DNA of 46,088 nucleotides, from positions 1 to 46,088 of IMG/VR virus record IMGVR_UViG_3300037473_000433; one strand, 5' to 3'. The notes beneath the pieces were generated by a model that worked only from the letters and a program-made list of their open reading frames with translations, was not told the DNA's origin and did not search any database. Shown here in pieces: positions 12,722-41,267 of this stretch. Numbering within the stretch: position 1 is the stretch's first letter; the number at the start of each line of letters is the position of its first letter. The translations under genes were made by a program, and so were the position numbers. Source of the stretch: a virus (lineage: Duplodnaviria > Caudoviricetes).

Positions 12722-12762
12722 GTCATACTCCAAAAAAGGAAATGCCGCCGGGGACGCCCCGA

Positions 12763-15255: not shown

Positions 15256-15262
15256 TCCCCAG

Positions 15263-15301
15263 AAAATAAAAAAAAGCCCCGCAGGTGAATTACCTGGGGG
15301 C
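15263..15301 (-). terminator. Intrinsic terminator just upstream of the protease gene
   Basis: Hairpin GCCCC(G)CAGGT-GAATT-ACCTG-GGGGC followed on the minus strand by TTTTTTTTATTTT. Confidence 0.55.
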
Positions 15302-15327
15302 CTCGATTTTTTCGATAGCCGGTTTAT

Positions 15328-15531
15328 TCAGGGGGACGACGGAAAAATCCGTTTGTGCATCCCCGCCTTGACGGACTGAAAATAACCCTTCTCGAACGGC
15401 ACCTCAAGGGAAATCGTACCATACGCGTTGACATCCCCGGCAACCGCATCCAGAAGTTTATCCAGTTCAGCCCGCATCGCTATTCGAAACCTGTCGTTTC
15501 GATCGTCGTCCGACGTCCTGCCCGCCGCCAT
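15328..15531 (-). CDS. Small hypothetical protein
   Basis: 67 aa between the portal and protease genes; AGGA Shine-Dalgarno. Confidence 0.55.
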   Translation of the reverse strand: MAAGRTSDDDRNDRFRIAMRAELDKLLDAVAGDVNAYGTISLEVPFEKGYFQSVKAGMHKRIFPSSP

Positions 15532-15542
15532 TTTCCTACCCC

Positions 15543-17834: not shown

Positions 17835-17836
17835 CG

Positions 17837-18070
17837 TCAGGCCTCCCCGGCCGCAATCTTATCCGCATGTCCCGCAGTTTCCGCCTGGATACGCTTCCGA
17901 TCGCGGGCAAGCACGTCATTCAATTGAAGGATATGTTCCTCAAGAACCTCGATTTTGCGTTCGAGTCGCGGTATGTCCCGCTCCCGGGCAACCAGCAACT
18001 CCTCAGCCAGCGATTGAATTGCTGCAGATTCCATTTTCCGCAGAACCCATCGCGCGAATTTTCCGAACAT
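17837..18070 (-). CDS. Small coiled-coil hypothetical protein
   Basis: 77 aa, tightly packed between terL and portal. Confidence 0.55.
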   Translation of the reverse strand: MFGKFARWVLRKMESAAIQSLAEELLVARERDIPRLERKIEVLEEHILQLNDVLARDRKRIQAETAGHADKIAAGEA

Positions 18071-18072
18071 AC

Positions 18073-19743
18073 CTAATCGCCCCCATTCTCCGCGTCAATC
18101 GACGCCGCCATACTGGCAATGAGCTCGCGCTTCTCGCGCTGAAACCTATCAGACGGATCCTCATTCCGCAACGCGTCTATATCGGACTGCATCGGGGACG
18201 CGACGTTCACGACGAACATCCCGCCGAACTGGACCTTATTGGACAGGGCCAGGCGATTGAACGCGCCCGCCGCGGCATCCGCCCGGTCCTTCAATTTCCG
18301 GGTGTCCATAATCTCATCCCCGGACAGCGCATCCAGTTCCGCCTCGAATCCCCGCCAGTCCCAGTCATCCGACGTGATTACAGTAACATTTCCGGCCTGT
18401 TGCTGAACCGCCAGCGGGCGCCAGCGGGACGCCTTGGAACCGGACGCCGTCACGGCAAAAACGGGATAACCCGACAACGAACGAATACTGAATTTGGCGG
18501 CAAATTTACCGCCTGAACCGGGTTCCTGTTCCATCCCGATTTCGACGTAACCCCAGCGCTGTCGATCCTTCTCGGCATTCGACAGCATCCGATCCTCGAC
18601 GTCGAAATCCGACCATCGTCCGCAGTCGCAGCCCAGCACATAAAAATGCGGCATGCGCAGCATGCGTTTTGTTTTTTCGTCAGACAACCAGTCAACCCGC
18701 ATCGCCATCAGGACTCCCGCCGTACGCGCGCCCGCGCCCCCCTCAGTGCCGGCCTTATCCCAGAACCGACAGAACGTGTATTCCCCGGGCGGCAACGCCC
18801 CGGCGCGTTTCCATTTGTCGCGCGGGAAAATCATCCCGGCCGCCGGCCGAATCTTCCAGTTCCCGCGCAGCAGGCGTTCGCGTTCGACAACGTCCAGGGC
18901 CATAAGGTTTGCCATGTACCCGGGGTCGTTCCGCATCAACGCGGTATTATCCTCGACGTTGGCCGCGACGAACGTAAACGATTTTGGGCGTTCCTGTGCG
19001 TTCTGCAGTAGAACTTCGCGCGCGTCCCCCTCGACCTCATCAGGAATCAGGGTTTTTGCAAATTCAACCGCGGACGCCCGATCATCGAACCAGTGCATTT
19101 CGTCACGATCGCGGACGAACCAGCGGATAACGCCGGAACGGGCCTGGATCGGATATCCCGTCTCCTGATCGATCCACCAGGCGATTAGTTCCGCCACCCA
19201 TGATTCAGAATCCGGATTGCATGTCGCGCGCACATACGGACGAACGCCGCAGGTTGATCGGTTACGCGACAGCATGAACCAGAACTGTCGGCTGGAAAAC
19301 TGCGTCAATTCGTCCCAACAGAGCAACGGAATTTGCGCCCCGCGCCAGTTTTCCGTGTCCTGATCATGCTGCATATGCGCGAATGAAACCGTCGCCCCGG
19401 ATGGGAACGTATGTTCCAGCCGCGTCTCAATCGCGACGGTGTTCAACTGCCCGTACAGCGCGTTGGATTCGTCCCAGAGACCGCCCTCGTTGCGAATCTG
19501 CGGGTACGTCTGCCGGAAAATGACGGCACCGAATCGGGGGTTATTGATATGCCGCAGGGGTTCCAGAAGCAGATAGTACGATTTGCCGCCCCCGGCCGCG
19601 CCCCCGAAAATGAGAATGTCCGCAGGCGACGCGCAGGCTGTTTCCTGCGGGCCGGCCTGCGGACGAATCTCAATTGCCTTCCCCATCGCGTCGAACGCGC
19701 GGGGTTTCTGCGTATTCTGCTTTTTACGTCCGGGACGTCCCAC
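18073..19743 (-). CDS. terL: Terminase large subunit
   Basis: Walker A FGGAAGGGKS, Walker B WDELTQF, ATCNP, nuclease motifs RFWDKA and EQEPGSGGK. Confidence 0.92.
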   Translation of the reverse strand: MGRPGRKKQNTQKPRAFDAMGKAIEIRPQAGPQETACASPADILIFGGAAGGGKSYYLLLEPLRHINNPRFGAVIFRQTYPQIRNEGGLWDESNALYGQLNTVAIETRLEHTFPSGATVSFAHMQHDQDTENWRGAQIPLLCWDELTQFSSRQFWFMLSRNRSTCGVRPYVRATCNPDSESWVAELIAWWIDQETGYPIQARSGVIRWFVRDRDEMHWFDDRASAVEFAKTLIPDEVEGDAREVLLQNAQERPKSFTFVAANVEDNTALMRNDPGYMANLMALDVVERERLLRGNWKIRPAAGMIFPRDKWKRAGALPPGEYTFCRFWDKAGTEGGAGARTAGVLMAMRVDWLSDEKTKRMLRMPHFYVLGCDCGRWSDFDVEDRMLSNAEKDRQRWGYVEIGMEQEPGSGGKFAAKFSIRSLSGYPVFAVTASGSKASRWRPLAVQQQAGNVTVITSDDWDWRGFEAELDALSGDEIMDTRKLKDRADAAAGAFNRLALSNKVQFGGMFVVNVASPMQSDIDALRNEDPSDRFQREKRELIASMAASIDAENGGD

Positions 19744-19746
19744 GGT

Positions 19747-20001
19747 TTACAGCCCAGTGGGATTAGCCGGATCGACAACAGCGGGGGCCGGGGTAATGTC
19801 AATGAAATATTCCTGCCCGGCGACAAACTGTTCGTTTGCGGCGGGGTTGACGCACCCCAGCATCAACGAGCCGGACGGCGTCCAGCGGAAAAATTCCTTA
19901 TTTTCCGGACTGCCGTCAACAACCGCCTCCATGCGAATATTCTTCCCATTGTCGGCGTTATCCTCAACGCCGACGCATTTGAACTTCGCGCGTACGCCCA
20001 T
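19747..20001 (-). CDS. Phage hypothetical protein
   Basis: 84 aa VRAKFKC...ENKEFFRWTPSGSL...YFIDITPA; GAGGAG Shine-Dalgarno. Confidence 0.7.
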   Translation of the reverse strand: MGVRAKFKCVGVEDNADNGKNIRMEAVVDGSPENKEFFRWTPSGSLMLGCVNPAANEQFVAGQEYFIDITPAPAVVDPANPTGL

Positions 20002-20067
20002 CGGGAACTCCTCAGGAATAGGAAAAAGCGGCCCGCATAAAAGGAACGGCGTCAGATGGAACGGATC

Positions 20068-20337
20068 CTACGCCTCAGGCGTCGAATCGTCCTTTTCAGC
20101 AGGCGCCTCGACGGCCTCGACAGTGACGTCAACCAGCCCGAACAACGGGAAATTGCGCAGGACCTCCTTGTTGTTCGTCCGGAATACGAGATTACCGTCT
20201 GGCTTGTAGGTTTTTTCGGTCCGCATCGCCTGACCGCGCGGGACAGTCCCGTCAAATCGCGGCTCCAGCCGCACGACAGACGTATCATTCGATTCGGGCT
20301 GAATGGACGTCACCTCGGCGCGAAACTTGAGAATCAT
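20068..20337 (-). CDS. Phage hypothetical protein, apparent paralog of 19747-20001
   Basis: 89 aa LKFRAEV...VRLEPRFDG...KPDGNLVFRTNN...VDVTVEAV; start overlaps the terS stop. Confidence 0.65.
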   Translation of the reverse strand: MILKFRAEVTSIQPESNDTSVVRLEPRFDGTVPRGQAMRTEKTYKPDGNLVFRTNNKEVLRNFPLFGLVDVTVEAVEAPAEKDDSTPEA

Positions 20338-20885
20338 GATTTTTCCTCTGGGGTACTGGAAACTACCTGCGCCCGCACCGGCCGCGCTGGCGTTACATCA
20401 ATTGGCAGCCCGACGCCCGGTGCGGGAAGGGCCGCGGTATTTGGGTTGCCGGAACGTCCGTTGTCCGGCAGGTAGACGTTAATCGACTGCGTCAACTGCG
20501 TCGGACCATGATTGGGATTTTCGTCCCGGGCCGATTTGAATTTCTCCGGCATTTCGGCATCCAGCAGTTTCGCCAAGATCCCGGTATTGATCTCATACTC
20601 GGACGCAACGCGATCACCCTTATAGTAAATTCCCTTTTTGCTGCCCCGCGTCCCCAGTTTGTATGCCGTTTCCCAGAGACGATCCTTCACGCGCTGGGCC
20701 GCGTTTTCAAACGCCGCGCGATATGTACTATGCCGTTCCATCCAGTTTTTGTGTATGCTGGGCTGCGCCCCGATCGCCCGGGCGGCCCCGGAAATCGTCC
20801 CGATGACAGCGTACGCCTCGAGGAATTTCGCCTGGCGGGCATCCATCCAGCGCCCGTCTACGAAAATCTGCCGCTGACGCGACAT
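20334..20885 (-). CDS. terS: Terminase small subunit (HTH)
   Basis: QAKFLEAYAVIGTISGAARAIG HTH, YRAAFENA, LLDAEMPEKF, VYLPDNGR; upstream of terL; start placed at MSRQRQ. Confidence 0.75.
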   Translation of the reverse strand: MSRQRQIFVDGRWMDARQAKFLEAYAVIGTISGAARAIGAQPSIHKNWMERHSTYRAAFENAAQRVKDRLWETAYKLGTRGSKKGIYYKGDRVASEYEINTGILAKLLDAEMPEKFKSARDENPNHGPTQLTQSINVYLPDNGRSGNPNTAALPAPGVGLPIDVTPARPVRAQVVSSTPEEKS

Positions 20886-21194
20886 CGTACGCGCCCCATG
20901 AGGGATCCGGCCCGGGGGGTTTGGCCGCGGAATGATTTTCGGCGTATACCCGTCGTCGCTATACAGCGTGTCCGCGCGCGCGAAGGGGCGCCGGGCGAGT
21001 TTTTCAATGGGCGGGGGCAGGAGGAGGATCATACGGATATTCCCGAAACAGGTTCGGGGACAGCATATCCGCAAATTGCCCGGAATGGAAAGAGAGAATG
21101 CCCGGCAGGTCATGGGGAAACCTGCCGGGCACCGTCAACAGCCACCTGCTCGCAACCAACGCAAGATTACAGTCGGGGTTTTCGACTGTCAACA

Positions 21195-25001: not shown

Positions 25002-25164
25002 GTGAAAAAAATTTTGGGGTATGCCCACTCCCATTATCGGAACTGGCTACGGTTTGGGCATTTATTACGCCTGGAGTTTAATTAATGCCCGAGTGAGGTG
25101 AAAAATTTGCGGGGTAGGCGTCCCCGGAATTTACGGTATTTGTTCCGTGAGTGAAAAATTTGCG
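25002..25164. repeat. Direct repeats GTGAAAAATTTGCG, a candidate terminase recognition/packaging site
   Basis: Exact copies at 25098-25111 and 25151-25164, degenerate copy at 25002-25016, in a ~800-bp noncoding gap between divergent operons. Confidence 0.45.
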
Positions 25165-25774
25165 CAGGGTCGAGCCCATCGCCCTGGCTCCGATTTCGTG
25201 CGACTTTTGGACTAAATCTAATTGATTTGGCCTGAATTATGCATATCTGCCATCAAATCAATTTAATTCTGCTGTCAAATCAATTCGAATAAATAGGGAA
25301 TTAAATTGTTCAATCCTACGTCAGCGCAAACTATGCATATATAGGGGGGAATACCGGGGGCTGACATGGGGCGCAACAGGGGAATATCCCAATGAATAAC
25401 GGGGGGATTACAATTTCCCGCAGTTGCATCGGGTATTTAATTAGGGAAATCGATTGGGACTGCATTAAACGGGTTCTGCAGGGCCGCGGATAATAGGGGC
25501 CGATCGAATTACGGGGCAGGAACCGGGGGCGTCATAGGGGCGGATATACGTTTCTGATTCGGCGCAGGCATGGGGCGCAGAAATGCGATTTGGGCAGTTA
25601 TGGCAATCTTGAGAAATCGATTCATTTTAGCTAAGTCATTAGTGGAAACAGGGATCGGCCAGGTTTTTGCATATCTGTCTGATGGAAAACGTCGCCATAA
25701 GTACCAAAAAGGGGGGTATTTCCACTGTATAGTGTAGGCTGTTGATTGATGACAACGAAACAGGAACCGCGAAA

Positions 25775-25981
25775 ATGATTACGAAACTGGATACAGAACT
25801 GGTTGCGGGAATGGTTGAAACCCTGCTGACGGGCGTTTCCCTGCTGTCATGGGGGGATTTCTACAACGACAACGGAACCATCGATCTGGACATCGTCGCC
25901 GAAACCGAATCCGGCGAAACGATCAACCGGACGATTCGCCTGAACCCTGATAACGGACAGTTCCGTTTGCGGGCCGTCTGA
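25775..25981 (+). CDS. Array gene 1, small acidic hypothetical protein
   Basis: 68 aa from ATG 25775 after CAGGAACC. Confidence 0.7.
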   Translation: MITKLDTELVAGMVETLLTGVSLLSWGDFYNDNGTIDLDIVAETESGETINRTIRLNPDNGQFRLRAV

Positions 25982-26045
25982 TCCGCGAAACCCCCCGCAA
26001 TAGGTTTCTGAAACCCAAAACCGAATTCAACAGGAAAACCGAACC

Positions 26046-26222
26046 ATGATTCTGACATCCCGCGATATCGAAAACCTGACGCGAAACGAAATGATTTCCC
26101 TGCTGGTTCAGATCGATCGAAATGGCATCTGGACAGATCGCGACAGCGAATTGCATGGATACGGCCCGCTGTCGGCCGATGACGCAAAACAGGCCCTGAC
26201 GGATCTGATTACCCGCGAATAA
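26046..26222 (+). CDS. Array gene 2, 58-aa hypothetical protein (absent from the ORF track)
   Basis: MILTSRDIENLTRNEMISLLVQIDRNGIWTDRDSELHGYGPLSADDAKQALTDLITRE*; repeat and AGGA leader. Confidence 0.75.
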   Translation: MILTSRDIENLTRNEMISLLVQIDRNGIWTDRDSELHGYGPLSADDAKQALTDLITRE

Positions 26223-26225
26223 CTG

Positions 26226-26254
26226 TTGACAGCAGTTGTATAGATTTCTATACT
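26226..26254 (+). promoter_or_regulatory. sigma70-type promoter with overlapping palindromic operator
   Basis: TTGACA-N17-TATACT; GTATAGA-TT-TCTATAC at 26238-26253. Confidence 0.85.
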
Positions 26255-26307
26255 GATACCAGCCCGAACCAGAAACCCCCGAACCCCGAACCGACAGGAA
26301 AACGACA

Positions 26308-26601
26308 ATGGATCCCAACGCATGCTATCGCAGGATTTTCGAATCATTCGCCAATGGCGATTTTCAGGACGCGTTTGATGCAATCGACGATTTGCGGCAA
26401 TGGCTGGCGAATGCGGGATTTGAACCTGAATGGGAAAACGTCCCCAATGGCTGGACAATCAATACATTTTCCGAACCGTCAACGTTCGGTTGGGCCGCGG
26501 GAACGCATGTCGTTACAGAATTTATCGCCCCGAACGGAATGACGCGCCGGGAAATCGGCCCGTTGCGCTGTCTGGAACGCCTGATTCAAAACGCGTCCTG
26601 A
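26308..26601 (+). CDS. Array gene 3, hypothetical protein
   Basis: 97 aa MDPNAC...WLANAGFEP; CAGGA leader. Confidence 0.75.
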   Translation: MDPNACYRRIFESFANGDFQDAFDAIDDLRQWLANAGFEPEWENVPNGWTINTFSEPSTFGWAAGTHVVTEFIAPNGMTRREIGPLRCLERLIQNAS

Positions 26602-26656
26602 ACCCCCGCAATGGGTTTCTGAAACTAAAACCCGAATTCAACAGGAAAACCGAACC

Positions 26657-26965
26657 ATGAAAATCGAACAGATTGAAATCAGTAGCGCCATTGACGACAA
26701 AAACAGGATTCATCTGGTTGTTGAACGGTTCCCGGAAAAACGCGTTGTCGTCAAAACGTCCCGCGTTGTCATCGAATCGGGCGCCATGTTCAAAACCGAT
26801 CCTGTCGAATGCATCGCAATCTACCCTGACAACAACGCGGCCTGTCGCATGACGAAATATCAATCGCTGGCGAACCGCATCGGGCCAATCGATCAGGCGT
26901 TGGATCTGACCAAATTCGATTGGCTGGTTCGAACCCTGCTGGAATATCCCCTGATCCCGCGCTAG
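26657..26965 (+). CDS. Array gene 4, hypothetical protein
   Basis: 102 aa; leader nearly identical to that of gene 2. Confidence 0.75.
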   Translation: MKIEQIEISSAIDDKNRIHLVVERFPEKRVVVKTSRVVIESGAMFKTDPVECIAIYPDNNAACRMTKYQSLANRIGPIDQALDLTKFDWLVRTLLEYPLIPR

Positions 26966-27006
26966 GCAAAACCCCCGTTAGTAATTTCTGAAACAGGAAC
27001 CAGATC

Positions 27007-27573
27007 ATGAATTACAAAAAAATCCCGTCGTCAATTCCCGGATGCCCAGAAACCAAACGCGTTCTGGGGGCTGACGAAATTCAGAACCTGCCGTTGGGGC
27101 TGTCGTTGACAGATCCGAAAACCGGATGGCGATATGTTGTCGTCATATGGCGCGCCGATGACGGAACGGTTTCCCGGGTTCTGCGTTCTGTCATGGAAAA
27201 CGATAAATTCGGAAACTACCTGAATGCCGAATCGCCGATCATTCCTGATCTGATCCCTGATCTGCCAACAACCGGACTGGCGTTTTGCTGGATGCAGAAC
27301 GAAATTGCGGCCGACATGAAATCGGGCATCGTCCCCGAAACCGTCGCATCGTTTTCCGAACTGCATGACTACGTAGATGCGAACTGCTACGGGGGCGCGG
27401 AATTCGAATTCATCCGAACGGACGGAACCGATGAATCTGAATCTGCGGCCCGGGATGCAATTGACGATGTCTACGCCCCCGCAATGGAACGCGTCAACGA
27501 TTGGCTGGCCCAACGGGCCAAATTGCGGCAACTGCTGGCAGCCCGGGATTCGGCAGATTGCGCCTATGCCTGA
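27007..27573 (+). CDS. Array gene 5, hypothetical protein
   Basis: 188 aa containing VPETVASFSELHDYVDANCYGG; repeat and CAGGAACC leader. Confidence 0.75.
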   Translation: MNYKKIPSSIPGCPETKRVLGADEIQNLPLGLSLTDPKTGWRYVVVIWRADDGTVSRVLRSVMENDKFGNYLNAESPIIPDLIPDLPTTGLAFCWMQNEIAADMKSGIVPETVASFSELHDYVDANCYGGAEFEFIRTDGTDESESAARDAIDDVYAPAMERVNDWLAQRAKLRQLLAARDSADCAYA

Positions 27574-27632
27574 AACCCCCGCAACGCGTCGCATTAATCC
27601 GAACCCAAAACCCCCGCTAGGATGTTTCTGAA

Positions 27633-28034
27633 ATGAACCGAACCGACAAACTGACTGCCCCCGTCATGATTGCCCCGAACCTGAATGCAGGCGTTAAAAT
27701 CGGCGACGCATGGGTAACAATCGGCTATTCTGATCTGCCCCCGAATGAACGGGGCAGGACGCGCTACCGATGGGAAATCATTTTCGCCGATGGGACGACA
27801 GAATCGGCTGACGACATGCGTTCCGGATGTCAGGGCGGAAACCTGACAGATGGATTGAAATCCCTGCTGTCGTATCTGTCGGCTGCAGCCGAATCCTACC
27901 GATACAACGGAAACGCGTACAATGCAGATCCCGACAGCAATTGCAGCCTGTTTTCTGAACGCGTTGTTGAATTCGCATACCAGAATGACGACGAAATCAG
28001 CATGACAGAATACGAAATCGAAAACCCCGAATAG
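27633..28034 (+). CDS. Array gene 6, acidic hypothetical protein
   Basis: 133 aa; ATG abuts the repeat (TTTCTGAAATG). Confidence 0.7.
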   Translation: MNRTDKLTAPVMIAPNLNAGVKIGDAWVTIGYSDLPPNERGRTRYRWEIIFADGTTESADDMRSGCQGGNLTDGLKSLLSYLSAAAESYRYNGNAYNADPDSNCSLFSERVVEFAYQNDDEISMTEYEIENPE

Positions 28035-28080
28035 TTCCCGCGAAACCCCCGGCTAGTAATTTCTGAAACAGGAACCAATC

Positions 28081-28251
28081 ATGTCAGACTATGAAATTTT
28101 CGAACTGATCAACGACGACGAAATCGGAGAACTGCTGGGGGATGTCAGCGCTGATAACGAAATTGACGCGCAGGAATTGGCCGAACAAATGTTCCCGGGC
28201 CAGCCTGTCATCGTCTGCGAAAATTCCGACATCTGGGGCGGACGGGCATAA
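28081..28251 (+). CDS. Array gene 7, 56-aa highly acidic protein (absent from the ORF track)
   Basis: MSDYEIFELINDDEIGELLGDVSADNEIDAQELAEQMFPGQPVIVCENSDIWGGRA*; 15 D/E versus 1 R. Confidence 0.75.
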   Translation: MSDYEIFELINDDEIGELLGDVSADNEIDAQELAEQMFPGQPVIVCENSDIWGGRA

Positions 28252-28301
28252 CCCCCCCCGCAATAGATTTCTGAAATCCGAACCAGACTGGAACCCCGAT
28301 C

Positions 28302-28580
28302 ATGACAACGAAAAACCCGATTCAGGAATTGCAGGATGCAGCCCCCGGGCTGGCCGATCTGCTGGCAAATCATCTGCGGGCCAATGGGCCGGATGTCGTT
28401 TTCAACGCGTTGCATTCCGCATGGATCGATGCAGCCGAATTCCTGAACGAATCCCCCCAGTATGGGGCAGTTAAAACAACGTTGCAACTGTTGGCGGACG
28501 TCGCGAACGGACATGGCAGCATGATTGTTGAAACCCGCCCCCGCGCCTATTTCCGAACATCGGTTCGGTTCCGGGAATAG
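28302..28580 (+). CDS. Array gene 8, hypothetical protein
   Basis: 92 aa flanked by repeats. Confidence 0.7.
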   Translation: MTTKNPIQELQDAAPGLADLLANHLRANGPDVVFNALHSAWIDAAEFLNESPQYGAVKTTLQLLADVANGHGSMIVETRPRAYFRTSVRFRE

Positions 28581-28646
28581 TCCGGAACCCCCGCTAGGAT
28601 ATTTCTGAAACCCAATCCAAACCCCGAACCCGCAGGAACCCCCGCA

Positions 28647-29195
28647 ATGCGTTTTCCGAAACTAATGACAGTCTGCATCGTCCTGAACATTGCCGCGATT
28701 GCAATTGGCGCCGTAAATCTGGTTGCCCGGAAACCAGGCATTTCCGAAATTGGAATTTCGACGCGCATCGAACAGGGGGAAATCCTGCTGCGGATCGATG
28801 GCGACGATTTCGGCATGGATGCGGCCTGCGCCCGATCCGTTGCAGACGCGCTGCGGATGTCAGCCGATGAACTAGACGCGATGTTAATTTCCCCTGAACC
28901 CCCGAACCTAATCATCTGGAACCAGAAAATGCAAATTCAAATCGTTCAATTCAGATTTGGCGGCGAAACGTTTTCCATGTTCATCAGCGCGCATGCCGAA
29001 AACGTTGTCATTCAGAAATCGGGCGCAGTTGTCGCGAAAATCGATATTGAATCCCATGCGTCAGGGGACGTCGATCCGATGCGCAATGCATGGGAAACTA
29101 TAGTAGGAAACCGCGGTTGGACAATCGATCAGTTCAAAACATTCCGAACCGTCGTCGACATGCTGGCCGCTAGCGCGTTGACAACAATCGTATAG
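28647..29195 (+). CDS. Array gene 9, N-terminal hydrophobic helix; probably two cassettes fused in frame (second start at 28929)
   Basis: 182 aa; internal leader remnant GAACCCCCGAACCTAATCATCTGGAACCAGAAAATG at 28896-28931. Confidence 0.65.
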   Translation: MRFPKLMTVCIVLNIAAIAIGAVNLVARKPGISEIGISTRIEQGEILLRIDGDDFGMDAACARSVADALRMSADELDAMLISPEPPNLIIWNQKMQIQIVQFRFGGETFSMFISAHAENVVIQKSGAVVAKIDIESHASGDVDPMRNAWETIVGNRGWTIDQFKTFRTVVDMLAASALTTIV

Positions 29196-29206
29196 ATATC
29201 TATACT
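29178..29206 (+). promoter_or_regulatory. sigma70-type promoter with a perfect 16-bp palindromic operator
   Basis: TTGACA-N17-TATACT; GTATAGATATCTATAC at 29190-29205. Confidence 0.85.
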
Positions 29207-29258
29207 GGAACCATCGCGACGCAAACCCGAACCCTGAACCCCCGATTAGGAACCAAAC

Positions 29259-29645
29259 ATGATTACAAACATCGATCGTCAGTTTCTGCAGACTGTCCGG
29301 CCTGAACTGGAAACCGCGCTGGCGGATGTTGCGGCCCGATACGGCGTAAAAATCAGTCTGGGGAATTGTACGTTTTCATCTGGGGCCGCAACGTTCAAAC
29401 TGAACATTGCAACGAAAACGGAATCGGGCGATGTCATGACGCCTGATGCTGAAATGTTCAAACTGTCTGCGTATCAGTTCGGCCTGAAACCCGAAAACCT
29501 GTTCGCCGAATTTACCTATGGGGGCGAACGATACAAACTGACGGGACTGAAACCGCGCAGCCGATTCCCGATCATCGCGCAACGCCTGTCGAATGGAAAA
29601 TCGTTCAAACTGCCGATTGAATCCGTTATGGGAAAATTCGCCTGA
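29259..29645 (+). CDS. Array gene 10, phage hypothetical protein
   Basis: 128 aa; AGGAACC leader downstream of the promoter. Confidence 0.8.
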   Translation: MITNIDRQFLQTVRPELETALADVAARYGVKISLGNCTFSSGAATFKLNIATKTESGDVMTPDAEMFKLSAYQFGLKPENLFAEFTYGGERYKLTGLKPRSRFPIIAQRLSNGKSFKLPIESVMGKFA

Positions 29646-29727
29646 TCCCCCCGCAACCATCGTTCTGAAACCCGAACCCCCGCTAGTAATTTCTGAAACT
29701 GAAACCGCCGAACTAGGAAACCGAACC

Positions 29728-30159
29728 ATGAACATCAGCCTAACTAAAATCAAAACGTTTCGCGCCATGTCCCGGGAAACTGAATGTTTCGTCGCAACGA
29801 TCTGTCTGGATGGGAAACCCGTCGGAACAGTTCGAAATGACGGGGGCGGGGGGCCTGACTGGTTCGAATGGAATGATCAGGACATCGGCGAACAAATCGA
29901 AAAATGGGCCGCGGAATCGACAGGCGAAAAATTCGAACCGCTGTCATGCGTCATCGCGAATCTACTGGACGCGGCCGATGAACTGAAACAACTGAAACGC
30001 TGGACGAAATCCGGCGCGCAGACAGTCTATCGACTGACAGATATGAAACCCGGCGCATGGTTGATTCTGAAAACCCCGTTCAACGAAACGACGCGCGACG
30101 CGTTGAAAACGAAACATGGGGACAAACTGGCGGAAATCGCCAATGATCGATTCGCCTGA
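29728..30159 (+). CDS. Array gene 11, phage hypothetical protein
   Basis: MNISLTKIK...SRETECFVATICLDGK...RNDGGGG; ATG follows a tandem repeat and AGGA. Confidence 0.8.
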   Translation: MNISLTKIKTFRAMSRETECFVATICLDGKPVGTVRNDGGGGPDWFEWNDQDIGEQIEKWAAESTGEKFEPLSCVIANLLDAADELKQLKRWTKSGAQTVYRLTDMKPGAWLILKTPFNETTRDALKTKHGDKLAEIANDRFA

Positions 30160-30309
30160 TCCCCCCGCTATGGGTTTCTGAAACGAAAAACCCGGCGCCC
30201 TTGGGCCAACGAAAAACGAAAAACCGCGAATTGACAGAGATTTCTATACTGGAATCATCGGGCCGGGAACCGCGGCCCATTCGAACCCCGAACCAACAGG
30301 AACCAGATC

Positions 30310-30834
30310 ATGAAACGCCCAGTCAGCCCCAACCAAATCGCCCGATTTCAGGCCCTGCGTAAATTCGTTCCCGATCTGCGGAACGTCCCGTCAGCCGAAT
30401 TCGACGAACCTACCCCGGGTTTCATTTATCCCGTCAACGAAACAGACAAATTCCCCCTATGGATTGCGATCGATCCGAAATCAGGGACGTTTTTCCCGGG
30501 GGATGAATTCGCAATCGGCAAATACAATGCAGCCGATTTGAACGATTGCGAATCTGCTGTCATCGCGTTCATTTCCGATGAACAGGGGGCAGAATTCCCC
30601 CCGGTTCCCGCGCCGGAATCCGATTGTCTGGTTTGGCCGATCGTCGAATATTTCGATACGTCGTCAGATGCCAGCGTTTTCGAAAATCGCTGTTTCAATG
30701 CCAAACTGACGAACCGAACCGCGGCCGATATCAAATATGAAAATGGGAAATGGGCCGCGCGGTTTGAAACGCCATGCCCGAAACAATGCGCGGCAATCGC
30801 GCATGCTGTCCGCCATCCAGTTTTTTCAGTTTGA
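30310..30834 (+). CDS. Array gene 12, hypothetical protein
   Basis: 174 aa; CAGGAACCAGATCATG leader identical to that of gene 5. Confidence 0.75.
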   Translation: MKRPVSPNQIARFQALRKFVPDLRNVPSAEFDEPTPGFIYPVNETDKFPLWIAIDPKSGTFFPGDEFAIGKYNAADLNDCESAVIAFISDEQGAEFPPVPAPESDCLVWPIVEYFDTSSDASVFENRCFNAKLTNRTAADIKYENGKWAARFETPCPKQCAAIAHAVRHPVFSV

Positions 30835-30891
30835 ACCCCCGCAACGCGTTTTCCGAACCGAACCCCCGCAACGTACATTCAGGAACCAACC

Positions 30892-31365
30892 ATGTCAGAC
30901 TATCGCAAAAACCTGCTGGATGCCCGCGTAGCAGCCCGGAACCAGGCCCATTCGATCGCAAACGAACTGCAGGCGAAATTGATTGATGCGGCCCGTCCAT
31001 TCATCGGCAAAAAAATCATCAATGCCGATGGTACGCTGGCGAAATCGTTCGAATCCAAACTGCCCCCGCTGCCATTCGGAAATGGGATTCGTTGTTACCA
31101 TGATCGGTATCAAACGCTGTTGGAATTTTTTCTGGACGTCTGTAAACATGTCGTTGGGGATTCGGGCTGCGTCTACGAAAAAACGTCAATCAGCGTAGGG
31201 ATTCTGGACGGGGGGATTCTGGTTTCCGTCCGCGAACCAGAACCGAAACGGACAGACTGGACAGCCGACGAAATCATTGCGGCCCGTCAGACAGCCGAAA
31301 ACCTGCGACGTCAGGCCCAGGACGCAGAAAACGCATGCGGCCCGTTCGGGCTGGTTGATCGGTAG
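30892..31365 (+). CDS. Array gene 13, hypothetical protein
   Basis: 157 aa; AGGAACCAACCATG leader. Confidence 0.75.
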   Translation: MSDYRKNLLDARVAARNQAHSIANELQAKLIDAARPFIGKKIINADGTLAKSFESKLPPLPFGNGIRCYHDRYQTLLEFFLDVCKHVVGDSGCVYEKTSISVGILDGGILVSVREPEPKRTDWTADEIIAARQTAENLRRQAQDAENACGPFGLVDR

Positions 31366-31446
31366 GAACCCCCCGCTATTCGATTTCCAAAACCCCCGCT
31401 ATGGGTTTCTGAAACCAAACTGAACCCCGAACCATAGGAACCAACC

Positions 31447-32061
31447 ATGTCATTTTCCGGTATGTTAGGATTCGTCGCCCCGAAACCCGTTTCCCCGCAT
31501 CGCATTGAATGGGACAAAATCGCCGCGAAAATCGTTGAACTGGGAGGCGATGTCCGGTTGCAGGGAGATCATCCATTTGAATATGGGCATGCGATCGTCC
31601 AGGTTCGCGACGCGGCAACAATCGCCGCGGGGGGAAAACCGGAATCGATTTCCATTGAAATCAAAATGACGTATACCGGCGCGTCGAAATGGACGCGCGG
31701 GCGTCCGACAGGGAATTACAAAATCTGCATCGGCGCCGGCCGGGATGCGGAACGCCTGGGCGGGGGCAAAAACGGAATTCCGTATCTGAACGTAGCGCAT
31801 CGCGTCATAGCGCATGCCCACATGAAACAGCGCGAAAACGAAAACCGGATCAAACGGGATGCGGACGAAAAACGCCAGACGGAAATGGTTGCATGTCTGC
31901 GGGCGCAATTCGGAATGGAACATCCGGATTATTCAGGGCGTCCCGTCATTAGCGCTAGCCCGCATTCGTTTTCGTCGATCCTGCTGCAATTCGAAACCGA
32001 CAACCCCGCGGCCGTTTACGAATTGGTTTCGCTGGCCCAGGCATTGGGCGTTTGGAAATAA
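31447..32061 (+). CDS. Array gene 14, hypothetical protein
   Basis: 204 aa; AGGAACCAACCATG leader. Confidence 0.75.
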   Translation: MSFSGMLGFVAPKPVSPHRIEWDKIAAKIVELGGDVRLQGDHPFEYGHAIVQVRDAATIAAGGKPESISIEIKMTYTGASKWTRGRPTGNYKICIGAGRDAERLGGGKNGIPYLNVAHRVIAHAHMKQRENENRIKRDADEKRQTEMVACLRAQFGMEHPDYSGRPVISASPHSFSSILLQFETDNPAAVYELVSLAQALGVWK

Positions 32062-32067
32062 TTGGTT

Positions 32068-32134
32068 CCATGCGGGGCTGGTTCCCCCGCATGGGTTCGG
32101 GCGCGCCGGCAGGACTGGTTCCCCTGCCGGCGCG
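32068..32134 (+). other. Tandem GC-rich hairpins sharing a CTGGTTC loop (candidate structured RNA)
   Basis: CCATGCGGGG-CTGGTTC-CCCCGCATGG (32068-32094) and CGCGCCGGCAGG-ACTGGTTCC-CCTGCCGGCGCG (32102-32134). Confidence 0.65.
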
Positions 32135-32186
32135 ATTTCAACCATACCCCCGATTACTGCCTTCTGAAAACAAAACAGGAAATACC

Positions 32187-32732
32187 ATGTCAACAACCAT
32201 CCGCAAAAACGCGTTCCAGAAAATTCATAACATCCTGTCGGGCTGCGTCCTGATTCGCCAGTTCAAATACGATGACATGGGGAATGACATGCAAACCGTT
32301 TCCGCTGACGACGTCATCGCCGCGGGCCGCGAATATGAATTCGATCGGGTTTCGGAAACCGACGATCAAATCCGCTGCAGCATCCATCGCAATTTCGCGT
32401 TTACCGGATACAAATCGATCGATGGGGCGCGCCGGACGATGACGCCCAGGGCATTTCGGGAATGTTTTTCATGGGTTGATGCAGACGGGTTTATCCCGCT
32501 GGCGGATTTCGAACGGGCGACGGCCGAATTCGGCGCGTTAGTTTCCGGCGCGCTGCGTCCCCATCATGACGACGACGAGACCCGGTTCCATCTGTTCGCG
32601 ACGAACGGCGCGGAAATCTGCGAACAGTTGGGACATATCATCATTGATGAATCATCCGCCGGCCCCGATTCCGGGAATATGGACTGGGCCTGCGCCGTCT
32701 GCGGATTGTCCGCGTCCGTCCCGTTGTACTAA
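32187..32732 (+). CDS. Array gene 15, hypothetical protein with C-terminal Cys/His zinc-binding-like motif
   Basis: Start MSTTIRK after CAGGA; CEQLGH...CAVCG. Confidence 0.7.
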   Translation: MSTTIRKNAFQKIHNILSGCVLIRQFKYDDMGNDMQTVSADDVIAAGREYEFDRVSETDDQIRCSIHRNFAFTGYKSIDGARRTMTPRAFRECFSWVDADGFIPLADFERATAEFGALVSGALRPHHDDDETRFHLFATNGAEICEQLGHIIIDESSAGPDSGNMDWACAVCGLSASVPLY

Positions 32733-32786
32733 ATCCCCGCTACGCGTTTTCTGAAACCCCCGCAACTAATCATCTGGAACCAAATC

Positions 32787-33101
32787 ATGCGACTGAAATC
32801 AATCGTCCTCGATACCGAGGAGACGACTGAAAATCCTAACGATTCAATAGAGATCCGTCTGGAAAAAACATGGACTACAGACGGGACGCGGATTTACCTG
32901 TCGGCCGTCCTGAAGCTATGGGACGGACATCTAAACAGGAATTCGGAACGCATCCTGCATCAAACCTGGATCTGGGCATTTGCCACAGAAATCCGGACCG
33001 CGATCGAGTCTGTATTGCGCGCCCCAATCGGGACAATTCCGCGAAGGTACGGCGATCGCGACGTTTCGTTAATTGCTGAACAGATCAACCGTCTACGATA
33101 A
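32787..33101 (+). CDS. Last array gene, hypothetical protein
   Basis: 104 aa flanked by repeats; contains several GAG/AAG/CTC unlike the other array genes. Confidence 0.7.
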   Translation: MRLKSIVLDTEETTENPNDSIEIRLEKTWTTDGTRIYLSAVLKLWDGHLNRNSERILHQTWIWAFATEIRTAIESVLRAPIGTIPRRYGDRDVSLIAEQINRLR

Positions 33102-33128
33102 CCCCCGCTATGGGTTTCTGAAACGAAA

Positions 33129-33156
33129 ATGGGCCGTCGCGAAATCGACGGCCCAT
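33129..33156. terminator. Hairpin between converging transcription units
   Basis: ATGGGCCGTCG-CGAAAT-CGACGGCCCAT; T-rich run on the minus-strand side. Confidence 0.65.
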
Positions 33157-33242
33157 CCAGGGATTATTTACCCTTCGGTTTTGGTTTTCGTTTACCGCCA
33201 GCGCATGCCACTAGGATCACCCCCCTTCCATGAAAAATAGAA

Positions 33243-33506
33243 TCAACCATCCGCAGACGTCCGCCGATGGATCCCAGACGCCCCCGGGCCAGTCCGGCGG
33301 ATAGATACCGCCCCAGGCCCCACGCGGCTGAATGACGCATCCCCGGGCCAGACAGGCGCCGGGGGCAGGGCGGCGGATTCGGACGCGTACAGATGCATCA
33401 GATGCAGCCTGTCCCCTACGGAATCGGCGGCCGGGGGAATGGATAACCGCCAGGGAACGGAATACCCGATCAATGACAGCCGTTTTGCGTACGTATCAAC
33501 AGCCAT
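33243..33506 (-). CDS. Small hypothetical protein, possibly virion-associated
   Basis: Start at MAVDTYAKRLS, 87 aa. Confidence 0.55.
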   Translation of the reverse strand: MAVDTYAKRLSLIGYSVPWRLSIPPAADSVGDRLHLMHLYASESAALPPAPVWPGDASFSRVGPGAVSIRRTGPGASGIHRRTSADG

Positions 33507-33549
33507 CAAACCCCCCGGCAACTGCCTTCTGAAAACAAAATCAGCCCGC

Positions 33550-33930
33550 TTAACCCGTAACCGTTTCCCCTGTTCCCGGATCGGCCGGTTTGTCGTTCGC
33601 AGCCCGGGCCGCCGCCAGGGTTGCATCCAGCTCGGCCTTCGATGCCGTCAATTCCGACAGCAATTTGTCTGCCGCCGCCCGCTGTTCCGCGGCAGTTTTC
33701 AAATCGAGCTCAACCGCCGCCCGGGCCTTCTGGACGTCAGTTTGAACAGCAGCGGACGCCAGGGCGGCCGACAACTGTTCCCGTTCTGCCTTCAGCGTCG
33801 CGTACGACATGCGTTCCCGTCGCGCCGTTTCCTCGGCCGCCGCGGCATTTTTCAAATGTTCCGCCATCGCCGCATTAACGAGATTCAGCCGGGCGATTCC
33901 ATCCTGAACCTGTTTTTCCAAATCAGACAT
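33550..33930 (-). CDS. Ala-rich coiled-coil protein
   Basis: 126 aa heptad-like Ala/Glu/Lys composition. Confidence 0.65.
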   Translation of the reverse strand: MSDLEKQVQDGIARLNLVNAAMAEHLKNAAAAEETARRERMSYATLKAEREQLSAALASAAVQTDVQKARAAVELDLKTAAEQRAAADKLLSELTASKAELDATLAAARAANDKPADPGTGETVTG

Positions 33931-33964
33931 ATTGCATATACCCCCGGCTACGTGCTTCCAAAAA

Positions 33965-34027
33965 ATGTAACGCGATCTGCGTTACATCCGCAGACCAGAA
34001 TTCATCGCGTAACGCAGTTTGCGCTAC
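33965..34027. promoter_or_regulatory. Pair of inverted-repeat sites GTAACGC-N5-GCG(T/C)TAC
   Basis: ATGTAACGC-GATCT-GCGTTACAT (33965-33987) and GTAACGC-AGTTT-GCGCTAC (34009-34027). Confidence 0.5.
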
Positions 34028-34054
34028 CCCCGGCTAGGTGCTTCCAAAAACAAA

Positions 34055-35989
34055 TCAGGCGGCAACCAGCGCGCCGACCGTAGTTAGCCCCGCTGCATCT
34101 GTCACGACGCGTTTCTGCTCGACGACGCCAGCCCGGCTGTACAACTGCTGCAGGCCAGTGTTCGTGTCCTGGTCATGCTTATTCGTAGCATCCTTATAAA
34201 TCCAACGCAGAATTTCCGCCAGCGTCGGGGTGTCCGTTGGGGTTCCAATTCCGGGGATTGCATATGTATCCCCGTTCATGACGTCCAGAAGTTCGGCGTT
34301 GACGTCTGCCTTAGCCTGCGTCGCCAACGAACCGATTGAACCGACGACATTCCCCCCGACATTGCCCGTCACGCTGCCCACGGCGCCCGTTGTGCTGAAC
34401 GTCTGCGACGCCGCCAGCGTAACCAGCCCGGACGCGGTATCCAGTTCCCCGGCCGCCGTGCCGTCGACAATCCGTATCCGACCGTTGGCGTCCGTCGACA
34501 GGGCATAGGAACCGCCCGTAATTGCATCCCGAATCTCTGTAACGGCAGACGACGCCAGGCCAGTTGCCGTCAGCCAATCCGTCCCGAAGTCTGCCGCGGC
34601 CAGCGCAAACCCCAGGGCGGACAACGTACGCGTCCCATTGGCCCAGACGCCCGCGTTTGTCGCGCGGCCCGAAATCGCTGCGTCCAGGTAGGTTCCCAGC
34701 AAAAACCCAGCCGTGCCGGCACCGTACAGCCCCGGAACGGTTGTCGACCAGGGATCGCCTGCCGACCCGGCAGCATTCAGCGCAGCCCCGGTTGTCCCCG
34801 ATGTCAGGTGGGCAGACAGGGTAACGTCCCAGGCGTCGGCGATATTTGTGAGCGTCGTCACCGTGTCCGCCAGCGTAACCCGGCTGATATGCCCGGACGC
34901 GTTGATCCCCAGCAGCGGGAAATTGTTCGGGAATGATGGAACGTTGGCGAGATTAGCGTTGTTGATATTGTCCATGTACCCGGCCCGCGCGGCCGTCAGG
35001 CGACTGAGCAGCGTCGTGACGCCGGACGAATCAGACGGGGCGTTCGTCAATGTTGTCGCCGTGTCCGTCAACACGACGTGCGCAATCGCACCCGACGTCG
35101 TATCGATTTCCCCTGCCCCGGTTCCGTCGACAATCCGAATCCGCCCGTTCGCGTCGGTCGAAAGAGCATAGGCGCCGCCAGTAATCAGGGCCTGCAATTC
35201 AGCTCCGGCAGACGCGGCCAATGACGTAGAGTTCACTGCGTCAGTACCAAGCGCCGTCGCGGTCCCGATCGTCGTTCCGGACAGATTGACTGTCGTTGTC
35301 GGGCCGCCGATGTTCGCCCAATCGATCCCAGCCTCGCCCGTGGAAGTAACGTCAAGCGTTCTGCCGGCAGTCGTTGGCTGCAGCGGCATTGCCCGCATCA
35401 CAGAAATATTGTCCTTAGCCGCGATTGTAAACGTCGGCGCGGCCGCCAGGGTGACGGTCTTCGTCGACCCGGTATAGGCCGAAATAATCCCGAATGACAT
35501 TTGCACGGCGCTTGCCGCGTCGTGAATCACAACCTCACGGCCGACAAGCGCATTGTCCTCCGCCGGCCCATTCGTAAGCGTAAAACTGGTTTGGCTCGAA
35601 AGCGTGGCAATCGTCGTATCGAGAACGGACCCCTCCTCACCGATACGAAACGTCGCCGCAAGAAAACTCATGGTCTGCGAGTCGACCGTGATGGTCGAAA
35701 CCACAACGAGATACCTCGATCCGCTCGCCCAGAAATCCGCAGTCGTATTATCTGACAGATCGATCGAGAACCCGTGGATGCCGGTGATTCCGTCAATATC
35801 AATCCCATCGGTATCGAGCAGCGTGAATCCGGACGCGCTCGCGCGCTGCGTCATATTCCCGTCTTTGTAAACGAGAATATCCGACGTCGCGAGTCCCGTA
35901 ATCGTGATCGGCGCCCCCGTCGAACTCGCAAATGATTCGAAGGGGATATAAATCGTCGATCCGGGCTGAACCTTATAGAAATTGATCAT
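34055..35989 (-). CDS. Thr/Ala/Gly-rich putative virion fibre or decoration protein with internal duplication
   Basis: 644 aa; ITGG(A/S)YALSTDANGRIRIVDGT(G/A)AGE(I/L)DT occurs twice. Confidence 0.65.
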   Translation of the reverse strand: MINFYKVQPGSTIYIPFESFASSTGAPITITGLATSDILVYKDGNMTQRASASGFTLLDTDGIDIDGITGIHGFSIDLSDNTTADFWASGSRYLVVVSTITVDSQTMSFLAATFRIGEEGSVLDTTIATLSSQTSFTLTNGPAEDNALVGREVVIHDAASAVQMSFGIISAYTGSTKTVTLAAAPTFTIAAKDNISVMRAMPLQPTTAGRTLDVTSTGEAGIDWANIGGPTTTVNLSGTTIGTATALGTDAVNSTSLAASAGAELQALITGGAYALSTDANGRIRIVDGTGAGEIDTTSGAIAHVVLTDTATTLTNAPSDSSGVTTLLSRLTAARAGYMDNINNANLANVPSFPNNFPLLGINASGHISRVTLADTVTTLTNIADAWDVTLSAHLTSGTTGAALNAAGSAGDPWSTTVPGLYGAGTAGFLLGTYLDAAISGRATNAGVWANGTRTLSALGFALAAADFGTDWLTATGLASSAVTEIRDAITGGSYALSTDANGRIRIVDGTAAGELDTASGLVTLAASQTFSTTGAVGSVTGNVGGNVVGSIGSLATQAKADVNAELLDVMNGDTYAIPGIGTPTDTPTLAEILRWIYKDATNKHDQDTNTGLQQLYSRAGVVEQKRVVTDAAGLTTVGALVAA

Positions 35990-35993
35990 TCTT

Positions 35994-37073
35994 TCAGTTC
36001 CGAACTAGCTTACCTGGACCAGTCAATGGGCCGCCCCCGCTGCCCCCGCCATCGCTGACCTGATCAAGCAGCAGGGACATTAATGTACGATGCGTCGTCG
36101 AGTCCGTAAATGCCCCCGTATCTGTTCTCTGGCATTGGTAAAAATCAGAACCGCCGCCGAGAACCGCGAGATAAGCCTGGGCCTGGACAGTAACCTCACG
36201 GAGAATCAGGCTGGTTGCCGTTGTTGGAATTACCTCTACGCGATACCACGTATTCGCCGTGATACTGACTGGTGTGCCGAAATAGCCCACGGCACGACCA
36301 AACACCGTCGCTGATCGATCAACAGCACGATAGGTAGGAGAAACCCCTAGCTGCGTCCCCGAGTCATCCGTAACGGCGATTGTAAAATCACCATCCATGT
36401 CGACGTTCAGCATGAGCCCGACGATGCGGGTCGGGAATGTCAATCTGAATCTATTGCCGTAGCGGTTTGGCGATGATCCGTTGTTGTAGGTAATGTTGGC
36501 CCACGTCATGATCGCCAGATTGTCGATCACCTGGTAGACAGCCCCGTTGCTATCCTTAAAGGAAACAATCGAGCACTGCGTTGCGTTTTTAACCCATGCC
36601 CCCGTGTTAAAAACGTCGACATAGTTGTTGCTGACCTTTGGGGTCCATGTCGTCGATCCGTTGGCCGTGGAAACGATGTTTCCAGCAAAGGTGGATCCCA
36701 CAGGCCGACGAATGACGAAGGCCACAAGCTGACCGCCCGCGACTACCGCATTAGCCGTCAGCGCCTTTTCAAGCCAGACGTTATCATCGGTAGCATTGAC
36801 GGTGATTGTGCCTGACGTATTCGTTGCCCACAATGTGCCGGAGGGATCACCACTGGCGTCGAGTGTTTGCACCTCAACAATCAAATCGCCGCCAGTAGTG
36901 ACAGTCCCGGTCTTAAACATCAGGGTCGCAATGTTCATGCCGTATGGCACGACAAGCACGCCCGCAATTGCTTCATTATCTGCATCAATCAGGGTTGATC
37001 CCAACGATGGGGAGGTACTTCCCTGATTACTCAGATAGGGATGCTCAAACGGGCTAATGGTCTGCATTGCCAT
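35994..37073 (-). CDS. Beta-rich putative virion/receptor-binding protein
   Basis: 359 aa, Thr/Gly/Val-rich; two similar halves ending in GGQLVAFVI and ANTWYRVEV; C-terminal GGGSGGG. Confidence 0.55.
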   Translation of the reverse strand: MAMQTISPFEHPYLSNQGSTSPSLGSTLIDADNEAIAGVLVVPYGMNIATLMFKTGTVTTGGDLIVEVQTLDASGDPSGTLWATNTSGTITVNATDDNVWLEKALTANAVVAGGQLVAFVIRRPVGSTFAGNIVSTANGSTTWTPKVSNNYVDVFNTGAWVKNATQCSIVSFKDSNGAVYQVIDNLAIMTWANITYNNGSSPNRYGNRFRLTFPTRIVGLMLNVDMDGDFTIAVTDDSGTQLGVSPTYRAVDRSATVFGRAVGYFGTPVSITANTWYRVEVIPTTATSLILREVTVQAQAYLAVLGGGSDFYQCQRTDTGAFTDSTTHRTLMSLLLDQVSDGGGSGGGPLTGPGKLVRN

Positions 37074-40119: not shown

Positions 40120-40236
40120 TTAGTGGGCTCGGGAAAGAATGGAGACGATGAAGGAAATGACTGCCCCAGATATGTTAAATCCAAGGCCGAACAGCAACCC
40201 GATCAGAACGGTTCGGAACGAAACTTCGAGATTCAT
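40120..40236 (-). CDS. 38-aa membrane peptide
   Basis: MNLEVSFRTVLIGLLFGLGFNISGAVISFIVSILSRAH*; ATGA overlap with the upstream stop. Confidence 0.45.
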   Translation of the reverse strand: MNLEVSFRTVLIGLLFGLGFNISGAVISFIVSILSRAH

Positions 40237-41264: not shown

Positions 41265-41267
41265 GAT

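Follow-up and report, generated by a model that had tools for sequence, protein, structure and literature searches.

The 46-kb contig of an uncultured soil phage (Caudoviricetes; IMG/VR record IMGVR_UViG_3300037473_000433), analyzed here over its whole length of 46,088 nucleotides, contains a block at positions 25207–32786 from which four short words have been almost completely purged on both strands, namely the trimers GAG/CTC, AAG/CTT and GTG/CAC and the tetramer GACC/GGTC. The block comprises 15 purged small genes led by promoters, in an array adjoining the terminase operon; sites of the four words and their complements number 18, whereas ∼304 would be present at the density seen in the remaining contig. 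Within 25735–32786, the three trimer pairs occur 8 times, against 673 expected from base composition. Under a first-order Markov model, the block holds 1 CAC/GTG site versus 173 expected, 2 AAG/CTT sites versus 127, and 5 GAG/CTC sites versus 126. The lowest listed trimer observed/expected ratios (O/E) of the block are 0.02–0.04, and the loss amounts to 97–98%. The initial annotation of this DNA had listed the same eight trimer sites, which are indeed all that 25735–32786 contains, and it was exact in both counts and coordinates; its three trimer pairs stand, but it overlooked GACC/GGTC, which is lost within the same borders (2 sites, at 26908 and 32579, versus 56.9 expected). The purge, seen in one genome, is real and stronger than first noted, and it is probably a new form of defense-target avoidance.

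What is selected against is the short words as such, in double-stranded DNA. When off-frame occurrences in the 15 genes were compared with synonymous shuffles, AAG (0 versus 12.7), CAC (0 versus 41.3), CTC (0 versus 34.4), CTT (0 versus 37.6) and GTG (0 versus 24.4) were absent, and GAG was found 3 times versus 26.8. The non-coding DNA of the block has 3 sites in 1,118 bases. The proposal that the avoidance operates at the DNA level on both strands and is not codon bias was therefore borne out, as off-frame, reverse-complement and non-coding counts are all near zero; a low-order Markov model fails to explain the loss, and the depletion is unequal across the genome. RNA-level toxins as the selecting agent were ruled out because both strands are purged. 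ATG (O/E 1.04) and AGG (0.97) are not depleted in the block, and CAG, GAA and AAC are enriched.

The borders of the purge are sharp. A clean non-coding stretch (25207–25607) has no site, and it is followed by an unpurged 127-bp patch in front of the first gene (25608–25734) that has 8 sites and half of an operator-like palindrome at 25727. Residual sites climb rightwards, from 2 in 4,465 bp to 8 in 2,587 bp and 9 in the 315-bp gene e16, and the longest stretch of the block without any of the six trimers is ∼2.4 kb. The density of the four words is 1.4 sites/kb in the block and 40 sites/kb in the remaining contig; comparison loci from two other phages have 78–85 sites/kb, about twice the non-block value. 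Outside the block, the trimers have an O/E of 0.44–0.62 and GACC of 0.50, with GACC and GGTC balanced between the strands (80 and 80). Thus, the local depletion described initially is near total only in the block, but the rest of the contig is also depleted 2–3-fold.

The purge reaches into the protein sequences. Without the trimers, 14 amino acid pairs cannot be encoded: Lys or Glu before Val, Ala, Asp, Glu or Gly, and Trp or Met before Cys or Trp. The 15 block proteins contain none of these forced pairs, compared with 81.6 ± 6.9 in shuffles (minimum 58 in 1,000 shuffles, with the longer start taken for the first open reading frame); none of the 212 Lys or Glu residues is followed by Val, Ala, Asp, Glu or Gly, which make up 36.6% of residues. 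Two array genes with homologs in other phages, e10 and e11, have neither forced pairs nor DNA sites, whereas three such homologs have 10, 6 and 8 forced pairs and 48, 33 and 38 sites. Codon choice in the block is one-sided (GAA 132 to GAG 1, AAA 85 to AAG 0, CAT 28 to CAC 1; no GTG, CTC or CTT), and GTG is exchanged for GTC or GTT, not GTA. The ribosome-binding sites of the early genes read AGGAA or TGGAA, and several late genes retain GGAG or GAGG.

The late genes avoid the same words where this is free of cost. In 33 late genes, forced pairs number 272 versus 370 ± 14 in shuffles. Ahead of a codon starting with G, Gln is written CAG 127 times and CAA twice, and Glu is written GAG 145 times and GAA 5 times. 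Fitted late-gene penalties were −1.60 for AAG, −1.31 for GACC, −1.20 for GAG and −1.01 for GTG; ATG was fitted with a positive weight in late (+0.23) and early (+1.17) genes.

The avoided words do not depend on their flanks, as all 24 four-letter extensions of the trimers are penalized, although unequally (−0.25 to −1.03). No asymmetric 5–6-mer is absent beyond chance in the contig. For bipartite sites in the 33 late genes, 2 of 876 half-site cells with an expectation of at least 4 were empty, against 2.2 ± 1.5 in the null (spacers 3–9), and inward-facing pairs of residual late sites showed no deficit at spacers 0–20. Under a constrained null in which the proteins, their codon usage and the counts of the four words were all preserved, CCWGG was low (7 versus 21.7; its z of −4.4 compares with minima of −2.9 to −3.8 in the null); two gapped words that reach a similar z overlap CCWGG or TAA, and the other gapped-word matches failed this null. 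A single degenerate reader of RWG was ruled out by the undepleted ATG, and half-sites or near neighbors of a palindrome were ruled out by the presence of GAGCTC (3) and CTCGAG (9) outside the block. The proposal that the trimers are cores of longer N6-methyladenine (m6A) sites was accordingly not supported, since no asymmetric 5–6-mer or bipartite motif was found to be missing.

Restriction pressure on the phage and its family is evident from a separate signal, the missing 6-bp palindromes. Over the whole contig, GGGCCC (0 observed/30.7 expected), CAGCTG (0/18.1), CCATGG (0/12.1), ACCGGT (0/8.4) and TTTAAA (0/6.0) are absent, and TGGCCA (1/11.3) and GGTACC (1/5.9) are nearly so. The late region lacks 8 six-base palindromes by the rule that was also applied to the family records, and most palindromes containing CG are used freely; ACGCGT, CCCGGG, GACGTC, CTGCAG, ATCGAT and TTCGAA are all in free use there. 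Hence the earlier statement that palindromes are freely used holds for the four it named, but GGGCCC, CAGCTG, CCATGG and others are absent contig-wide. Each of seven family records (L087, L088/L199, L201, G001–G003, G005) is nearly without 15–30 six-base palindromes; a few palindromes in the present contig fell under the expectation cut-off because of the trimer loss, and the fewer lost palindromes could reflect a different host or DNA modification. The four purged words are asymmetric 3–4-mers and so differ from this type IIP avoidance, which is contig-wide. Had longer sites been the targets of the purge, they would be expected to be missing from the entire contig, like the 6-bp palindromes.

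No comparable purge was found elsewhere. In a comparison set of 226 loci, each 2 kb or longer (3.1 Mb, partly redundant, including relatives, T5, T7, SPO1 and phiCbK), runs free of all six trimers do not exceed 157 bases, and in no locus do the three trimers all fall below an O/E of 0.89. The purge is absent from 79 distant terminase loci, from 10 terminase-bearing loci among 115 pattern matches (the remaining 105 are chance matches, used as background only), from 23 capsid-family loci and from five longer records. These include a complete 93-kb relative, whose AAG/GAG dip is located in long genes of structural type on the minus strand and not in an array of cassettes. In IMG/VR, the repeat pattern of the array together with the terminase recovered only the same phage (100% identical). 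The closest reachable relative (capsid 54% identical) has mild penalties for GAG (−0.57) and GACC (−0.62), other family members having penalties of similar size, and a 40-kb Logan contig encodes a terminase and a capsid 58–62% identical. The capsid family was found in 0 of 401 genomes of one candidate host phylum.

The first-step-transfer (pre-early) DNA of T5 and the ocr-bearing left end of T7 are compact modules of small genes that are transcribed by the host polymerase and attacked before counter-defense is made, a plan that the block appears to share. Their first-entry regions lose 4–5-bp palindromic words (GATC, CCWGG) and no trimer; the lowest listed first-entry trimer O/E is 0.79 in T5, 0.77 in T7, 0.70 in SPO1 and 0.59 in phiCbK, versus 0.02–0.04 here. 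T7 gene 0.3 (ocr) is annotated as an EcoB/EcoK inhibitor. In the block, no homologs of dmp, A1 or A2 of the T5 module were found with PHROG, Pfam and NCBIfam. According to the accessible parts of two reports, EcoRI and type I-E Cascade act on T5 pre-early DNA only (PMC5389539; 10.1101/866236). The leading regions of plasmids are first-entering, rich in anti-defense genes and shaped in sequence; in the portion of PMC13478746 available, they are described as codon-optimized with palindromes not consistently depleted, whereas here codon choice yields to word avoidance. Target avoidance in first-entering DNA is known for 4–6-bp palindromes, and mild depletion of protospacer adjacent motifs (PAMs) is also known; the near-total loss of three trimers and a tetramer goes beyond both. 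The literature searched, whose coverage was incomplete and mostly without subscription papers, reported no trimer purge that bans dipeptides.

We consider it probable that the block is a defense-exposed early module of some kind. The initial annotation had placed an early-type gene module here, and an array adjoining the terminase operon was confirmed; that this is first-entering DNA encoding anti-defense proteins we continue to infer. The explanation we favor, tentatively, is that host restriction-type enzymes reading RAG, CAC and GACC directly, words that can all be written around an adenine, select on the first-expressed DNA. The four words were likely purged from the array because the block is first-expressed DNA and the host likely carries short-word readers. 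Host sigma-70 polymerase would transcribe the array at once on entry, and each site would cost slight survival until an array product blocks the defense. Fast-changing early genes could then shed every site, even through amino acid changes, and structural genes, entering or mattering later, would shed cheap sites only. Ordinary cutters of 6-bp palindromes would stay unblocked, and their sites would therefore be lost contig-wide. Natural enzymes that target exactly GACC and RAG are known, from Helicobacter pylori and an algal virus: the type III methyltransferase ModH5 marks G(m6A)CC (PMC5700931, seen in part), and the chlorella-virus enzyme Nt.CviQII nicks R^AG (PMC3017599, likewise).

Several observations weigh against direct readers in the host. 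No reader enzyme was seen and a search for the host found none; the literature search gave no bacterial reader of RAG or CAC, the RAG precedent being the chlorella-virus enzyme, and no precedent at all for a CAC reader. No early gene matched a known anti-defense family in family searches. Because ∼40 sites/kb remain elsewhere, the explanation has to assume either an inhibitor or entry in stages. Assembled contigs, the only data for this, revealed neither a terminal repeat nor a genome end, and their depth was not doubled over the block (6.7–9.1, versus 9.9 beside it). The eight sites in the 25608–25734 patch are unexplained under every model. The context z-scores are slightly over-dispersed (variance 0.91 versus 0.78 ± 0.05), leaving room for weak longer motifs. 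According to the part of 10.64898/2026.09.23.753747 that was available, phages do not uniformly avoid asymmetric restriction sites.

Escape from CRISPR systems is a close rival of selection by host enzymes, and we regard it as possible. Here AAG, GAG and GTG would be class 1 PAMs, escape mutations would pile up on the first-entering and effectively targeted DNA, and GACC would be a separate restriction target. The initial annotation had also raised PAMs, and the idea fits the three trimers: a PAM is a context-independent three-letter word, which matches the observed pattern, and AAG, with the largest late-gene penalty, is the consensus type I-E and IV-A3 PAM. In the accessible parts of the sources, GAG is an interfering I-E PAM (PMC6568314), KAG and GTG are IV-A3 PAMs (PMC12714566), and the PAM table of PMC8482600 lists AG (I-E), CTT (I-C) and GTG (I-D). 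T5 is protected against only by spacers that target pre-early genes (PMC5389539, in part), and a graded CRISPR risk would suit the partial depletion outside the block. Against this, ATG, the Escherichia coli I-E consensus PAM, is undepleted, as is AGG, and CAG and AAC are enriched. GACC/GGTC does not fit and is missing from the type I PAM table of PMC8482600, in the part available, and five supplements of that paper gave no whole-word match. PAM depletion in phage genomes as reported (PMC4246573, PMC12174588, both available in part) likewise lowers three-letter words on both strands, AAG included, but it is modest and genome-averaged, whereas here the loss is regional, reaches 97–98% and extends into proteins, with ATG spared and GACC included. 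Among the loose contig ends displayed, no spacer matched the phage.

Self-protection from a nuclease made by the phage appears unlikely. An early protein would cut host DNA at the words while the remaining genome is held back, and this would explain a sharp block and any set of words. Such self-protection has been proposed for T5 A1 (10.1101/866236), and virus-encoded three-letter nickases exist (PMC3017599), as far as the available parts of both sources go. No nuclease family was found among the 16 array genes in family searches, however; the first-step DNA of T5 shows no trimer purge at its lowest listed O/E, and four unrelated words would require several enzymes.

It is equally improbable that many longer sites of type I, IIG, III or bacteriophage exclusion (BREX) systems, met over time, have these words in common as cores or half-sites. 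In favor are the numerous restriction systems that the phage family faces, the central adenine around which each of the four words can be written, and the slight over-dispersion of contexts. However, the late genes miss no full-length asymmetric or bipartite site while 6-bp palindromes are at zero, and CAG, GAA and AAC are enriched in the block although they are common half-sites. For 97% of a trimer to be cleared, nearly all of its contexts would have to be covered; a diffuse action of a great many longer motifs keeps a small share of the probability. A cause without defense, such as mutational bias, biased codon use or avoidance of Shine-Dalgarno sequences, has a negligible probability: GGAG and GGAGG are somewhat low on late coding strands, but reverse complements are equally purged, non-coding DNA is purged, the borders are sharp, GTG is replaced as described above, the protein sequence is constrained and 0 of the 226 other loci approach the block, and as the sole cause it was refuted by the shuffle, forced-pair and 226-locus comparisons. 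Other readers hold the remaining probability.

The array consists of 16 co-oriented small genes on the plus strand, divergent from the terminase operon, and is the only plus-strand array annotated. Several of its proteins are small and acidic, and searches of PHROG, Pfam and NCBIfam and of an atlas, PDB and folds named no function for any early gene. In profile searches, e1 (25775–25981, 68 amino acids), e2 (26046–26222, 58) and e3 (26308–26601, 97) are acidic and without a family. Gene e4 (26657–26965, 102 amino acids) has no family and carries the residual GACC at 26908. Residues 96–166 of e5 (27007–27573, 188 amino acids) are similar to Arthrobacter phage hypothetical proteins (best E 7e-5 among 16 records), and the acidic e6 (27633–28034, 133) matches PHROG 21648, function unknown (E 1.2e-10). 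The 56-residue e7 (28081–28251), with a residual GAG at 28127, has 15 Asp/Glu versus 1 Lys/Arg, a composition that may be DNA-mimic-like, and e8 (28302–28580, 92) has no family. The 182-amino acid frame of e9 (28647–29195) contains an internal leader and an in-frame ATG near 28929 that suggest a second start. The e10 protein (29259–29645, 128 amino acids) is 30–33% identical to hypothetical proteins of the Erythrobacter phages R6L and ZS04 and of the Erwinia phage Kaldavass; its DNA has no sites compared with 48 in the R6L homolog and 33 in the Kaldavass homolog. The e11 protein (29728–30159, 143) is 41% identical to a protein of the jumbo phage LR756511.1, whose gene has 38 sites and 8 forced pairs.

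No family or phage match was obtained for e12 (30310–30834, 174 amino acids) or e13 (30892–31365, 157), and no match for e14 (31447–32061, 204; 3 residual sites) or e15 (32187–32732, 181; residual GAG at 32577 and GACC at 32579). The last gene, e16 (32787–33101, 104), has a leader of the same kind but is not purged and forms the right border. Single-sequence models of two early proteins, with predicted local distance difference test (pLDDT) scores of 39 and 54, were too poor to judge. Low-depth contigs of sequencing run X1 join 28036 to 28585 and 30192 to 30282 at repeat or leader sequences (within 27993–28613 and 30163–30366), which hints at strains with other cassette orders, on flanks of just 29–30 letters. 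Directly after the last plus-strand cassette, where transcription directions meet, a hairpin with a 10-bp stem lies at 33130–33155; a terminator scan was negative.

Two predicted sigma-70-type promoters, TTGACA-17-TATACT, lie on the plus strand at 26226–26254 and 29178–29206. Both score 11/12 against the consensus, on consensus matches alone, and in each of them a palindrome of 16 bp extends over the −10 box, GTATAGATTTCTATAC at 26238–26253 and the perfect GTATAGATATCTATAC at 29190–29205. A third promoter-like site (30231–30258, plus strand) has a half operator at 30244 and lies by the residual CTT at 30200 and GAG at 30237. The operator-like palindrome, GTATAGATWTCTATAC, has half or near copies at 25727, 30244 and, toward the right end of the contig, 45601–45662 in addition to the two −10 boxes, and its sharing suggests a common repressor.

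Ahead of most cassettes, and mostly intergenic, is a plus-strand repeat, CCCCG(G)CWA, usually followed 5–7 nucleotides later by TTTCTGAAAC; the contig has 24 matches on the plus strand, of which 22 fall in 25993–34060. It retains the plus orientation behind minus-strand genes (33513, 33942, 34028), two partial copies left of 25.2 kb face the opposite way (24990 and 25114, minus strand), and it had no Rfam match. Speculatively, the repeat may function as a polar signal in the DNA, similar to Chi or related to entry, and not as an element of a transcript. Two near-copies of GAGTGA(GGTGA)AAAATTTGCG, rich in avoided words, occur at 25074–25155, a short distance left of where the purge starts and upstream of the terminase operon; the motif is a candidate late promoter or packaging signal.

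The divergent packaging operon (11123–21113, minus strand) was assigned by family matches, and the same words are depleted 2–3-fold in it. It encodes the small terminase (20334–21113), the large terminase (18073–19743), a portal fused to a Mu F-like domain (15543–17834), a prohead protease fused to an AAA ATPase (12763–15255) and an HK97-type capsid (11123–12733), all on the minus strand, as are the tail genes. The protease-AAA fusion is shared with the relative L088 over 776 amino acids. Other minus-strand genes are a glycosyltransferase-like gene amid head-neck genes (9443–10345), a thioredoxin and methyltransferase-fold protein beside a papain-like peptidase (40233–42170), and a PAS-domain protein near a spanin-like gene (44976–45575). 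The methyltransferase-fold protein (40233–41264), which has a thioredoxin domain and is hydrophobic over a stretch at its N terminus, was not adopted as a DNA methyltransferase. Two genes at 34055–37073 (minus strand) have 41 and 56 trimer sites/kb, at or above the 35/kb averaged over the late genes, and may have been acquired more recently.

With a complete member of the family reaching 93 kb, the contig is probably partial. In run X1, assembled contigs break at 25269–25333, within the clean non-coding stretch, and a genome end there is possible; a read-length piece of another run spans 25173–25314. In lambda-like phages, packaging ends, and ejection begins, with the DNA that lies just upstream of the terminase operon. 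Runs X2–X5 contained small shares of the contig only and were excluded from the evidence, and the soil metagenome run with the best representation of the contig may be its source.

The cost of the purge is that 14 amino acid pairs are banned from 15 proteins, and the missing words would amount to a readout of what a host defense recognizes. At its fullest, the explanation by host enzymes would involve a soil host with undescribed three-letter readers (RAG and CAC, plus GACC) and a first-expressed phage module, rewritten down to the protein level, whose new inhibitors would shield the remaining genome, the lineage having exchanged the palindrome avoidance of its family for this strategy; we put this forward as a conceivable, if doubtful, picture. 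The purge singles out 15 orphan genes, several of them small and acidic, as candidate inhibitors of that defense, and the banned pairs (Lys or Glu before Val, Ala, Asp, Glu or Gly) provide a protein-only signature for finding similar modules in databases.

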